Shown piece after piece: positions 9,510 through 22,134 of a stretch of DNA of 44,319 nucleotides (its first letter is position 1; each line of letters starts with the position of its first letter). The notes below the pieces were generated by a model that saw nothing but the letters and a program-made list of their open reading frames with translations, ran no database searches and was not told the DNA's origin. Position numbers and translations under genes: made by a program. The DNA is taken from the sequence record PP514360; one strand, 5' to 3'. The stretch is from Escherichia phage HK1.

Positions 9510-9752
9510 TCAAGCATTTTCATTAAAAAGATTTCGGGTCACGTAGTTGGTGGCGTTCTCGACCCAGCTTAGCGGCGGGCGTTCGATGTTCTTTTCCACC
9601 CAATAGACGGCAGCTTCGCTATAACCGTCGTCCAGCCAGCGGGTCGGATGGCGAATCATCCAGGCTACCATTAACACGCCTTGCACACAATGCAGGATAA
9701 AGCCCAGTGCGCCGAGCAAAAACATCAATAAGATTGCGAATACTTTATTCAT
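9510..9752 (-). CDS. small membrane protein (80 aa)
   Basis: Hydrophobic N-terminus (FAILLMFLLGALGFIL); GAGGA SD upstream of ATG at 9752. Confidence 0.5.
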   Translation of the reverse strand: MNKVFAILLMFLLGALGFILHCVQGVLMVAWMIRHPTRWLDDGYSEAAVYWVEKNIERPPLSWVENATNYVTRNLFNENA

Positions 9753-11175
9753 TGCTTAAGTCCTCGTCAGTAGCTTCCGACCACGCAGGGCGCGGGTCGT
9801 CGATTGGTGCTAACACCGGTTTAGCGGGTGCGCGTGTGATTTTAGCACACAGCTTCGCCCACACTTTCGGCTTCTCGTCCTTCAGTACCTTCTCGGCATC
9901 GGTCGGGCTGAGCAATGTTTCTTTGTACATCACATCGCGCTTGATCCGGGCCTTCGTGAAGATTTCAATCACTTCGCTCTCGTCTGCCCACTTACGGATC
10001 CCTTCCTTACCGGCAACCATCTTAAGGCCCAACGATTCGCCATCGCCCGCCATGACCGCCTTGAATACCGCGTACTCGATAGCTTTGATGTGCTGGCGCA
10101 TTGCGTCAAGTCCTTCATAAGCCTTGCGCAGTTCCGCCGCGCTCATAGCGCCTGGGGTGGATTCCTTCTTGCCCCGTTTAGCACGTCGGGCAGCCTTCCG
10201 GGCTTCGCGGGTCATATTGCGGTCTTGGTTGGCGCACTCTTCCTCGGTTGCCACGCTCACGTCGTCGCCCAGGTCTTCGTCGGTTGCCGTTGGTGGCGTC
10301 ATCGTGTCGATTGCGGCCTTCGCCCGGACGCTGCACTGGTCCGCAAATCTGCACCACTGGCACGCATCAACGCTGGGCCGGAAGTCGGCGCGGGTGAGTC
10401 CTTTTTTACCGCGGGCGTACGCTTCCAGTGCGGCGATAGCACGCTTGGACGCAAACTTCGCGAATATCTCCAGCGCTTCCACTGAGATATCCCACTCTGA
10501 CGCCCCGCCGCAATACGGCTGGAAGATAACCAGGCGCACGGTCGTAATGTCGTACATGGTTTGCAGCTTGCGCAGCAAGCCGAGCGCGTACAACATAAGC
10601 TGTTTGTTTTCTTTTGCCTCGACCTTATGCCGCCCGGTCTTCAGGTCGCCAACAATCAGCATGTACGTTCCGTCGGTCTTTTTCATGACCATGACCATAT
10701 CGGCAGTACCGAACGTTTTAATCCTGTTGCCGTCGATCTCGAATCCTGAATGAAGGACGCGGGTCAGATCGGCGCGCATCTCAAGCTGGACAAACTCCGC
10801 CACTTCGAGGAGCGGTCGCCAGTGGTCGATGTACGCGTCGCACTGTTTCACCATATCGTCGTTGACCAGTACGCCGCCTTTCGGTGCTTTCGGGTGCGCC
10901 TTTACTGGCCCCTTGCCTTCATTCTCGACGTAACACCCTTTGTACGTCTTAGCGGTTATCAGCTTTTCCCCGGCAATGATGCGGTTTAGCACGACCTCTG
11001 ATACGGTGTGCATACTCGTACCATTAATCGCCGCTTGCCCGGATTCGTTCGGGATATCTTTTTCCACCACCAGGGCGGCGGGGCAGCCCATCCATTTTTT
11101 AGCACCGGATGGGCCGAGTAAAGAGTGTTCCGTGTTGCTACCGGATTGCGTTTTACGTTTTGGTTTAATCGCCAT
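9745..11175 (-). CDS. DUF2800-like PD-(D/E)XK nuclease (Cas4-like, Cys cluster)
   Basis: N-terminal HSLLGPSGAKKWMGCPAAL and C-terminal CQWCRFADQC cysteine cluster (Cas4-like arrangement); GGGTGG SD upstream of ATG at 11175. Confidence 0.65.
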   Translation of the reverse strand: MAIKPKRKTQSGSNTEHSLLGPSGAKKWMGCPAALVVEKDIPNESGQAAINGTSMHTVSEVVLNRIIAGEKLITAKTYKGCYVENEGKGPVKAHPKAPKGGVLVNDDMVKQCDAYIDHWRPLLEVAEFVQLEMRADLTRVLHSGFEIDGNRIKTFGTADMVMVMKKTDGTYMLIVGDLKTGRHKVEAKENKQLMLYALGLLRKLQTMYDITTVRLVIFQPYCGGASEWDISVEALEIFAKFASKRAIAALEAYARGKKGLTRADFRPSVDACQWCRFADQCSVRAKAAIDTMTPPTATDEDLGDDVSVATEEECANQDRNMTREARKAARRAKRGKKESTPGAMSAAELRKAYEGLDAMRQHIKAIEYAVFKAVMAGDGESLGLKMVAGKEGIRKWADESEVIEIFTKARIKRDVMYKETLLSPTDAEKVLKDEKPKVWAKLCAKITRAPAKPVLAPIDDPRPAWSEATDEDLSNE

Positions 11176-18693: not shown

Positions 18694-18720
18694 AAGCCCG
18701 GTTAATTCCGGGCTTTTTAT
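18694..18720 (+). terminator. intrinsic terminator after the lysis cassette
   Basis: AAGCCCGG-ttaatt-CCGGGCTT followed by TTTTTATT. Confidence 0.65.
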
Positions 18721-18924
18721 TGCTTGACTCGCAACCAACATAGACGCCATACTGCGACCAATCAACGAGAGGAGTAATCAAGATGGCACGTAAAGATATT
18801 TGGGTATTAGCGATCTGGACCACCGCGGCTTTTATCGGCATGGTTATTTGCGAATTGATATAGCCCGCAGCCATACGGACCGTGGTATATTGTCCACGGT
18901 CCACTAATCAGGAATTAATTAAAT

Positions 18925-20067
18925 ATGCACCCGCAAACTAAAATTACCGATGAGCAATTGATCGCAGAAATTCAGGCAGGGACTACGGTTAAAGAGATTG
19001 CGAAGAAATACGGGATTGCCCTGCGCAATGTCTATATGCGGAAGGCCCGCCTGTCGAAAAAGGGAATTGGTCACGGCAATGATGCCGTGATCCGTAAGCG
19101 CGTTGCCGATGGTTTTGGGGTTAAGCGCGTATCGGCCCTGGTGCGCGGAAATGGCGAAGAGGTCATGTCGTGGGTCATCACTGAGCAGGACAAGGAGCGC
19201 CAACTCGAAGCTATGCGCGCTGTTGTCGAGGGTATGAACAGCGAAATAACACCGGCAGCGCCAGTAAACGCTCCGCCAGTACCGATCCAGGCGCTCGACT
19301 TGCTTAACCTGTACACGGTGTCCGACTTCCACCTGGGCATGTTGGCATGGGGAGAGGAGACTGGCGAAGACTGGGATATGGCGATCGCCGAAGACCTGTT
19401 CTACCGCTGGTTTGTCGAAGCCTTCGCACGCGCACCAGACGCAGGCACTGCCGTGATCAATATCCTCGGCGATATGGCGCACTTTGATAGCCTCGACGCC
19501 GTCACTCCCGCCAGCGGTCACGTATTGGACGCCGACACCAGATACCAGAAGTTGGTCCGCTACATGATTCGTATGGTGCGCAACGTCGTCGAACTTGCCC
19601 TGCAAAAACACCACAAAGTCAAACTGCTAATCGTCCAGGGGAATCATGATGAGTCGGGTATGATCTGGCTGGCTGAGATGTTCAATACTCTGTACGAGAA
19701 CGAGCCGCGCGTCGATGTGGATACGTCCCCGGACGTTTACAAAATGGTGCAGCACGGAAAGACCACGCTATTCTTCCACCACGGGCACAAAGCGCGATTC
19801 GATGTTATCGAGCAGGTTATGATCGCTAAATTCAGACAGGCGTTCGGGGCGAGCGAATACAGCTACGCGCACGTAGGCCATTTGCACCACCAGAAGATTG
19901 TTGAATCCCGCAACATGATTGTTGAACAGCACAGGACGCTCGCAGCGAAAGACGCCTACGCCAGTCGTGGCGGTTGGATGTCAGGTCGCAGCGCCAACGT
20001 CATTACCTACAGCGCCAACTACGGCGAAGTAGCGCGCTTAACCATTAGCCCGGAAATGTTGAAGTAA
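18925..20067 (+). CDS. HTH domain fused to calcineurin-like metallophosphoesterase (phosphatase or Mre11/SbcD-like nuclease)
   Basis: N-terminal TVKEIAKKYGIALRNVY (HTH); C-terminal SDFHLG, ILGDMAHFD, QGNHDE, HHGHK, GHLHH matching the metallophosphoesterase motif series in order. Confidence 0.7.
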   Translation: MHPQTKITDEQLIAEIQAGTTVKEIAKKYGIALRNVYMRKARLSKKGIGHGNDAVIRKRVADGFGVKRVSALVRGNGEEVMSWVITEQDKERQLEAMRAVVEGMNSEITPAAPVNAPPVPIQALDLLNLYTVSDFHLGMLAWGEETGEDWDMAIAEDLFYRWFVEAFARAPDAGTAVINILGDMAHFDSLDAVTPASGHVLDADTRYQKLVRYMIRMVRNVVELALQKHHKVKLLIVQGNHDESGMIWLAEMFNTLYENEPRVDVDTSPDVYKMVQHGKTTLFFHHGHKARFDVIEQVMIAKFRQAFGASEYSYAHVGHLHHQKIVESRNMIVEQHRTLAAKDAYASRGGWMSGRSANVITYSANYGEVARLTISPEMLK

Positions 20068-20197
20068 CGGCAACCAGTACCCCTCCCAGCCTGCCGATTT
20101 GGTGGGCTTTTTTGTGCCTGTTATAATCCGCCTTAGATGGCAGGGCCGTCTCCTATGTCGCCGATGGTCGGCGCATATGAACAAAAGGGCTTATATC

Positions 20198-20749
20198 ATG
20201 GCAGAAATCAAAGTTAAGGGCCGACGCGCCAAACTGGACGGACGAGTAGCAGTAACCCCGCGCCGTAAACCAGGCGAGCAAACCGAGCACACCAATCTTG
20301 GACCTGAAATCGAGTACGGAAAACGCCGTAAAGGCGGCAAATGTGGACGCCCTACTGACTACAGATCCGTTTACTGCGATCAGCTTCGCCGCTATTTTGC
20401 CGACGCCGACGCCTGGCAGGTCAACTACTCCGATAAAGGCGCTGCGCAAGTAATCCCCCGCAACAAAATGCCAACCTTCGGCCGATTTGCCGCTGAAATC
20501 GGCGTGGGCGTAGCTTGCCTGTATCGCTGGGCGCGTGCGCATGAGGAGTTTGCCGAGGCGATGGCTGACGCTATGGAATTGCAGAAAACCTTCCTGATGG
20601 AAGCTGGCGGCGTGACCATCGCGGCGGGCTTCGCTACATTCCTGCTTAAAGCAAACCACGGCGTCCGCGACGATATACCGCTGGATGACGACGAAGATGA
20701 TAACGGCGACGTCGTTGTGGAGCCTACCGGCAAAGGCCAGGGTGAATAA
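20198..20749 (+). CDS. terminase small subunit
   Basis: Position directly upstream of and overlapping the large terminase; basic N-terminus, central helix-rich region (FGRFAAEIGVGVACLYRWARAHEEF), acidic C-terminus. Start at MAEIK (AAGGG SD); alternative ATG at 20177. Confidence 0.6.
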   Translation: MAEIKVKGRRAKLDGRVAVTPRRKPGEQTEHTNLGPEIEYGKRRKGGKCGRPTDYRSVYCDQLRRYFADADAWQVNYSDKGAAQVIPRNKMPTFGRFAAEIGVGVACLYRWARAHEEFAEAMADAMELQKTFLMEAGGVTIAAGFATFLLKANHGVRDDIPLDDDEDDNGDVVVEPTGKGQGE

Positions 20750-22134
20750 TGCGTAACTATGCGGCGGAACACCGCGCCCTTGAACGAGCGATCGCAAAGC
20801 GTAACCGACCGCCACGCCCGACACGCGTTGCGCAGGCTGTGCGTCTTTACCAGCCAGATTGCTTGCCGCACCAGGTTGAACTACTGCGTGACACGAAGAC
20901 TAAAATCCTCGGCCTGTGTTCCGGCTTCGGCGGTGGCAAGTCATGGGTTGCCGCACGTAAGGTCATCCAGCTTCTGACACTTAACCCTGGTTATGACGGC
21001 ATCGTGACCGAACCGACTATCCCACTCCTGGTTAAAATCATGTATCCGGAACTGGAGAAGGCATTCGACGAGGCTGGCTTCCGGTGGAAGTTCAATAAGC
21101 AGGACAAGATTTACAACGTGCTGGTGAAAGGCAAATGGACTCGCGTTATCTGTGAGTCAATGGAGAACTATACCCGCCTGATCGGTATCAACGCCGCGTG
21201 GATTGTTGCCGACGAGTTCGACACCACGAAACAAGACGTCGCGCTGGCGGCATATCACAAATTGCTCGGTCGTCTGCGTGCTGGCTTCGTCCGCCAGTTC
21301 GTCATCGTGTCAACGCCGGAAGGCTTCCGGGCGATGTATCAAATTTTCGAGGTGGAGAAGGATAGCCAGAAACGCTTGATCCGGGCGAAGACCACGGACA
21401 ACCACCATTTACCGGCGGACTTTATCGACACGCTGCGTAGTCAATACCCAGCTAACCTGATCGACGCGTACCTGAACGGCCTGTTTGTTAACCTTACGTC
21501 GGGCGCGGTGTACAAGATGTTCAACCGCGAGGAGAACGCCAGCACCGAAGAAGTGCAGCCGGACGACACGCTGATTATCGGTATGGACTTTAACGTCACG
21601 AAAATGGCGGCGGTCGTATACGTCAGACGGCAGCGAGTAACCGAGAACAAGGAGTTCCGCGACGAGATTCACGCGGTGGATGAATTTGTGGACCTGTTTG
21701 ACACCCCGGCTATGATTGAGGCGATCGAGGAGCGCTACCCCGATCATTGCGCTGCCGGTCGTGTCGTCGTTTACCCGGATAGCAGCGGCAAGTCTCGCAA
21801 GACTGTCAACGCGTCGTCGTCCGATATCGCACAACTGGAAGATGCTGGCTTCGAGGTGGAGTATGACAGCGTTAACCCACCGGTGAAAGACCGATTGATC
21901 GCGATGAATACGATGATGTGCAACTCGAATGGTGTGCGCCAGTATTTTGTCAACCTGGATAAATGCCCTACACTAGCGAAATGTCTGGAACAGCAGGTTT
22001 ACGACCTGAAGAAAGGCGAGCCGGATAAAACTGCCGGTGTGGACCACATGAATGACGCGGCGGGATACCCTATTGCGCACTTGTTCCCTGTGATTCGTCC
22101 GATCGCCGTTGTTCCAACTGTAGACTTCTACTAA
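20749..22134 (+). CDS. terminase large subunit
   Basis: 461 aa; Walker A-like GFGGGKS, Walker B IVADEFD, C-terminal nuclease-like GMDFNVTK; start overlaps the small-subunit stop (TAATG). Confidence 0.85.
   Translation: MRNYAAEHRALERAIAKRNRPPRPTRVAQAVRLYQPDCLPHQVELLRDTKTKILGLCSGFGGGKSWVAARKVIQLLTLNPGYDGIVTEPTIPLLVKIMYPELEKAFDEAGFRWKFNKQDKIYNVLVKGKWTRVICESMENYTRLIGINAAWIVADEFDTTKQDVALAAYHKLLGRLRAGFVRQFVIVSTPEGFRAMYQIFEVEKDSQKRLIRAKTTDNHHLPADFIDTLRSQYPANLIDAYLNGLFVNLTSGAVYKMFNREENASTEEVQPDDTLIIGMDFNVTKMAAVVYVRRQRVTENKEFRDEIHAVDEFVDLFDTPAMIEAIEERYPDHCAAGRVVVYPDSSGKSRKTVNASSSDIAQLEDAGFEVEYDSVNPPVKDRLIAMNTMMCNSNGVRQYFVNLDKCPTLAKCLEQQVYDLKKGEPDKTAGVDHMNDAAGYPIAHLFPVIRPIAVVPTVDFY

Follow-up and report, generated by a model that had tools for sequence, protein, structure and literature searches.

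A single open reading frame stands immediately 5' of the terminase genes of Escherichia phage HK1 (PP514360), and its location raises the question of whether its product serves DNA packaging or, alternatively, host takeover, both of which a preliminary description had considered plausible. The window, that is, the whole stretch of 44,319 nt that was analysed, corresponds to a Dhillonvirus-type E. coli siphophage. According to the list of open reading frames and the sequence, the frame runs from 18925 to 20067 on the plus strand, starts with ATG, is preceded by an AGGA 11 nt upstream and encodes 380 amino acids followed by a stop codon; the PEC9 annotation sets identical boundaries for this gene. 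A secreted or membrane role of the product was ruled out, as its sequence is devoid of hydrophobic segments, and we propose a cytoplasmic enzyme of two modules, a helix-turn-helix (HTH) and a metallophosphoesterase (MPE), with the following features:

18949..19059, plus strand: predicted three-helix HTH DNA-binding domain (residues 9-45)
19114..19242, plus strand: beta-hairpin (residues 64-88) and helix (90-106), from AlphaFold2 secondary structure and conservation
19291..20064, plus strand: MPE core (residues 123-380)
19324..19332, plus strand: motif I, D134-F-H136, invariant in alignments of 40 and 124 sequences
19468..19488, plus strand: motif II, G182-D183-M-A-H186-F-D188, from conservation in two alignments
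19639..19650, plus strand: motif III, G239-N240-H241-D242; N240 and H241 invariant, codons read directly
19777..19788, plus strand: motif IV, H285-H286-G287-H288; H286 invariant, codons read directly
19876..19887, plus strand: motif V, G318-H319-L-H321; G318 and H321 invariant, codons read directly

The preliminary description had read five ordered MPE motifs (DxH, GDxxH, GNHDE, HHGH and GHxH) in this frame, and all of them are indeed there in the canonical order (DFH at 134, GDMAH at 182, GNHD(E) at 239, HHGH at 285 and GHLH at 318) and conserved in homologs. Among 40 representatives with 32-48% identity to the window protein, D134, H136, G182, D183, D188, T194, N240, H241, H286, G318 and H321 are invariant, and H186 of motif II is conserved in at least 90%; in the 124-sequence alignment, H186 and D188 are invariant and D183 reaches at least 90%. 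Across sets of 137 and 124 sequences, the metal-ligand residues of the motifs are either invariant or at least 92% conserved. Such invariance of motifs I-V in diverse homologs implies a selected active site. The core was modelled as an alpha/beta sandwich superposable on solved MPE members, the 59 residues between motif V and the C-terminus forming predicted strands of its C-terminal segment. The loop that carries the invariant T194-P195 pair has a pLDDT below 50 in the AlphaFold2 model, and this poor modelling leaves the substrate pocket undefined.

At the other end of the protein, the segment 1-48 is basic (pI 10.1), and two independent AlphaFold2 runs rendered a three-helix bundle with pLDDT values of 87-91. 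The stretch TVKEIAKKYGIALRNVY (residues 21-37) covers the second and third helices of this bundle and the turn that joins them, and the model is superposable on known DNA-binding domains of the resolvase, LuxR-GerE or sigma-70 region 4 type; the N-terminal region announced as an HTH thus folds as one. The HTH scored below the Pfam gathering thresholds in the window protein (GerE, 15.2 vs 23.5; HTH_28, 14.9 vs 25), as did the matches of the core to PF00149 and PF12850 (22.2 vs 27 and 20.3 vs 21.5 bits, respectively). Homologs yielded stronger HTH matches than the window protein (Sigma70_r4_2, 1.5e-9; GerE, 2.4e-8), and 10 of the 40 diverse members matched PF00149 at E <0.01; the family is divergent and Pfam under-calls its proteins. 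Both domain calls rely on motifs, family-wide matches and fold, by which the two-domain reading of the preliminary description is correct. The N-terminal module was found in all of 137 full-length representatives, and the near-invariant G77 and W83 sit in the hairpin/helix module (64-106). The HTH is the least conserved part of the family, whereas the catalytic residues are invariant, and a member from a Campylobacter phage keeps the hairpin/helix module without the HTH.

This protein is by no means an isolated case. It falls into PHROG 704 ("DNA repair exonuclease") with an E value of 3.1e-161 (residues 5-380, aligned to positions 2-390 of a profile 390 positions long), as an ordinary full-length member in which no difference was found, and it is 99% identical to deposited Dhillonvirus proteins. 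The family, throughout which the HTH plus MPE architecture is common, is present in 2,059 phage records, T1-like, Jersey-like and Klebsiella phages among them, and the gene occurs in ~4% of sequenced phage genomes. The HTH-MPE gene is already known as an annotated core gene of many phages, deposited hundreds of times (for example, as Shfl1p67, a T1p16 homolog, SETP7 gp22, SE2 gp52 and PEC9_9), and has been described, as an "exonuclease" gene, as persistent in Drexlerviridae (PMC13164509). Yet the names given to so widespread a core gene are all computational and mutually inconsistent, ranging over exonuclease, phosphoesterase, oxidoreductase and DNA polymerase small subunit, with GenBank entries reading "calcineurin-like phosphoesterase superfamily domain protein", "metallophosphoesterase" or "winged helix-turn-helix domain-containing protein". 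NCBIfam and PADLOC scans of the protein returned no meaningful match, and literature searches covering Dhillonvirus, T1, SECphi4 escapers, escape mutants and T1-like RNA-seq retrieved no experimental test of any PHROG 704 member. Its carriers include T1-like, Dhillonvirus and Jersey-like phages, which serve as models and therapy phages.

We therefore turn to what the location of the gene reveals. The small and large terminase subunit genes, TerS (20177-20749) and TerL (20749-22134), do lie directly downstream, as the preliminary description had it, and a lysis cassette lies upstream. The intervening regions contain the following candidate signals:

18694..18715, both strands: candidate terminator-like GC-rich hairpin closing the upstream lysis cassette (consensus scan only)
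18724..18753, plus strand: weak sigma-70-like promoter candidate (TTGACT, 18 nt, CATACT; 9 of 12 consensus matches)
20088..20116, plus strand: terminator-like hairpin and T-run in the 109-nt gap between the MPE gene and TerS (consensus scan; visible in the sequence)

Promoter-like sites upstream of the MPE gene, where the intergenic region is AT-rich (44.7% GC), showed no excess over shuffled sequences in the consensus scan. Set between lysis cassette and terminase genes, the HTH-MPE gene appears to be transcribed as a separate unit, whose boundaries and timing we infer. A helicase-primase gene is also encoded upstream on the same strand of the window.

Neighbour genes in 36 lineages were assigned by bulk PHROG and Pfam scans, and their BLAST-level clustering yielded almost no shared clusters. 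In just one of these lineages did the four genes closest to the HTH-MPE gene include TerL. In Jerseyviruses, whose protein is 74% identical, the gene occupies an opposite-strand island within the tail operon, and in temperate relatives it adjoins the integrase; in T1-like phages (Drexlerviridae) it is followed by the holin-endolysin-spanin genes in 508 of 522 genomes (PMC13164509). In all three groups a long distance separates it from the terminase. Elsewhere, its neighbours show an enrichment of DNA- and nucleotide-metabolism genes, for nucleotide kinase, polynucleotide kinase and RusA/NinG/EndoVII resolvases, and further for exonuclease, PolA, primase and dUTPase, and lysis genes recur too. 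Terminase adjacency is thus peculiar to the phage group of HK1. As this adjacency is not conserved, and a terminator-like hairpin precedes TerS, the position of the gene does not evidence a packaging role, and the positional argument made earlier is not supported.

The explanation that we favour, and to which we would give about an even chance, is that the HTH-MPE protein is a DNA-tethered nuclease or phosphodiesterase of a DNA-metabolism or host-takeover programme rather than of packaging. We infer catalysis, DNA as the substrate and the biological role along the following lines. The basic resolvase/LuxR/sigma-70-region-4-like HTH would tether the protein to DNA, and a low-confidence, probably flexible linker together with the beta-hairpin module would connect this tether with a binuclear, catalytically intact MPE of the nuclease/phosphodiesterase branch (Mre11, SbcD, PolD-DP1, T5 A1-like). 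Its most likely activity would be that of a Mn2+/Mg2+-dependent exo- and/or endonuclease cutting phosphodiester bonds in DNA with no Rad50/SbcC partner, and its most likely role the degradation or processing of DNA (host chromosome, ends or intermediates), feeding nucleotide salvage. This model is favoured by the DNA- and nucleotide-metabolism genes that adjoin the gene in other lineages, by the primase and polynucleotide kinase genes beside it in Klebsiella phage MEW1 and by its place downstream of the HK1 helicase-primase gene. Counting against it are the mildly acidic pI of its catalytic core (6.0) and the presence of a second exonuclease gene in HK1, at 9745-11175.

The preliminary description had traced the motifs to both Ser/Thr phosphatases and Mre11/SbcD nucleases. 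The fold speaks for the latter: the best Foldseek match of the MPE model is M. jannaschii Mre11, and its closest matches are nucleases rather than enzymes resembling Pnkp or lambda phosphatase; Rv0805 is also among the fold matches. On the other hand, no significant sequence link to Mre11/SbcD emerged, SbcD falling into PHROG 100 and aligning at 2-3% in hhalign. Unlike Mre11, SbcD, T4 gp47 and archaeal PolD DP1, the HK1 protein has no capping domain, its chain being too short for one, and no Rad50, SbcC or gp46 partner nearby; an N-terminal HTH stands in for these features. No Rad50/SbcC/gp46-type ATPase is encoded among the window neighbours (lysis genes and terminase), Rad50/SbcC-type families are absent from the most frequent neighbour families in the 36 lineages, and no Rad50-like gene is annotated adjoining the Campylobacter phage member. 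Neither the single protein nor a 124-sequence profile retrieved a relevant sequence from the PDB; what came up were designed armadillo repeats, a proteasome subunit and weak matches to GerE/Lrp.

Profile comparisons with PHROG 704 ranked T5 A1 first, followed by Bxb1 gp47 and SbcD, with lambda NinI far lower. Alignment of the family profile with single SbcD, NinI and gp47 sequences by hhalign gave values below 5%, which are uninformative. T5 A1 scored 59.7% in hhalign (E 8.8e-5, 217 columns; reversed control, 0.1%), an alignment that places motifs III-V in register and motifs I-II out of register, and the N-terminal HTH regions of both were aligned at 30% in the full-length comparison. This sequence link, short of a 90% probability, does not establish homology statistically and is suggestive only. 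A Pfam scan of A1 gave no match, and a literature search found no characterisation of its biochemical activity; its C-terminal half carries invariant MPE motifs. With a DNA-binding domain and an MPE-like nuclease domain, it is the closest characterised analogue that we found, a pre-early protein needed for the breakdown of host DNA, for shut-off of the host and for second-step DNA transfer. It differs from the window protein in its length (556 aa), in a middle region of ~230 aa that the HK1 protein lacks and in the location of its gene, within the first-step-transfer terminal repeat. Degradation of host DNA depends on A1, which has been modelled with an N-terminal DNA-binding and a C-terminal nuclease domain (10.1101/2022.08.27.505566). 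A phage MPE can act as a DNase on its own, as evidenced by Gp48 of mycobacteriophage A10ZJ24, an early MPE with phosphodiesterase and DNase activities that degrades host DNA and acts on linear, circular and genomic DNA, and whose published alignment includes a Bxb1 MPE (PMC12287305). The cluster-A mycobacteriophage MPE (Gp48; Bxb1 gp47) shares the five motifs with the HK1 protein but is ~255 aa long, has no HTH, belongs to PHROG 221 instead of 704 and matches the PHROG 704 profile weakly (4-8%). Should the T5 A1 parallel be true, small tractable siphophages would offer an easy system for the study of HTH-tethered MPE nuclease attack on host DNA, in which it could also be tested whether HTH-MPE proteins trigger DNA-sensing defences, e.g., retron Ec67, whose activation has been proposed for T5 A1.

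The neighbour genes of other phages suggest another, albeit unlikely, function, namely nucleic-acid end-healing, in which the MPE and a polynucleotide kinase (PNK) would jointly act on broken DNA or RNA, the MPE taking off 3'-phosphates or opening 2',3'-cyclic ones. The MPE module of Pnkp works in this way in bacteria. PNK or nucleotide kinase genes recur directly downstream of the MPE gene, phrog_415 and phrog_236 being among its commonest neighbour families; in Klebsiella phage MEW1, the MPE gene follows the primase gene and overlaps the PNK gene by 4 nt, and the Campylobacter phage member adjoins a DNA ligase gene. Similarly, a PNK or dNMP kinase gene comes directly after the exonuclease gene in Drexlerviridae without the SH3 gene (PMC13164509). 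However, neither a PNK nor a ligase gene adjoins the MPE gene in the HK1 window, and at least one of the neighbouring PNKs has a HAD phosphatase domain of its own. Furthermore, an HTH for duplex DNA would be unexpected in tRNA repair, and the fold matches favour nucleases over Pnkp-like enzymes.

It is distinctly unlikely that the protein is primarily a transcription factor whose HTH regulates late or lysis genes, or its own gene, with the MPE as a sensor or moonlighting enzyme. A non-enzymatic second role has precedent in Bxb1 gp47, which we take to be the Gp48 counterpart and which is an MPE-family protein annotated as a recombination directionality factor. The LuxR/sigma-70-region-4 type of the HTH would fit regulation, as would the recurrence of the gene near holin and endolysin genes in unrelated lineages and in the 508 Drexlerviridae genomes mentioned above; in lineages L003 and L004, the homolog separates nin-like genes from the lysis cassette and fills the slot that belongs to Q in lambda. 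Nevertheless, conservation resides in the catalytic residues rather than in the HTH, which the Campylobacter phage member dispenses with altogether, and a search for repeats and inverted repeats around the gene found short chance-level matches only, with no operator-like or pac-like elements. The lysis linkage may merely reflect a shared module boundary.

That linkage would acquire a meaning if PHROG 704 consisted of dual-function HTH-targeted MPE nucleases coupled to the lysis cassette, as siphovirus counterparts of T5 A1, a view that we regard as very doubtful. DNA status or host-chromosome destruction might then, for instance, be linked with the expression of the holin and endolysin genes or with their timing. 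If true, this would explain both the persistent exonuclease-holin-endolysin-spanin module in T1-like phages and the reappearance of the MPE gene beside lysis genes in unrelated lineages. As an observation in its own right, the recurrent lysis-cassette linkage is unexplained by the nuclease model.

We consider it very improbable that the protein is a packaging-associated nuclease aiding the terminase in the recognition or cutting of concatemers, as proposed from its position, where other phages often carry a packaging-associated HNH nuclease. The likeness to HNH accessory nucleases (HK97 gp74-like) is confined to the map position just upstream of TerS/TerL; these have an unrelated fold, the HK1 protein is an MPE without an HNH motif, and the terminase type differs. 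HNH helpers go with HK97-like cos terminases, and that of HK1 is not of this type: its TerL is T4-type (Terminase_6N/6C) with its own RNaseH-like nuclease domain, and its TerS has weak, sub-threshold P22-gp3/Sf6-like matches. Along with the single lineage in which TerL is near, the remoteness from the terminase in T1-like phages, Jerseyviruses and temperate relatives and the hairpin before TerS, this argues against the packaging half of the earlier proposal, whereas T5 A1 and Gp48 provide analogies that keep its host-takeover half plausible.

It is highly improbable that the protein is a phosphodiesterase directed against host defence, destroying immune signals made of nucleotides, e.g., cyclic oligonucleotides. 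Some MPEs are phosphodiesterases of cyclic nucleotides, among them Rv0805, itself a fold match, and an Acb2/Tad1-like sponge gene is located ~1.4 kb downstream of the L003/L004 homolog, just past the lysozyme gene; but the PADLOC scan was devoid of defence-related matches, an enzyme with a small-molecule substrate would have no evident need of a DNA-binding HTH, and literature linking escape or sensitivity to the MPE gene was not found. A Ser/Thr(/Tyr) protein phosphatase for host takeover, akin to lambda NinI, is hardly credible: the superfamily is the same and lambda-like phages have NinI in a comparable pre-lysis region, but the HK1 protein reads GDxxH and GNHD in place of the GDxVDRG and GNHE signatures typical of PPP phosphatases and does not belong with them by sequence.

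Two further points were set aside. The phosphoesterase of a preprint on PUA-Cal-HAD is a host defence enzyme, irrelevant to the phage MPE gene. Recent import of the gene, or a moron origin, was ruled out by its composition, with a GC content of 54.8% that matches the 54.6% of the genome.

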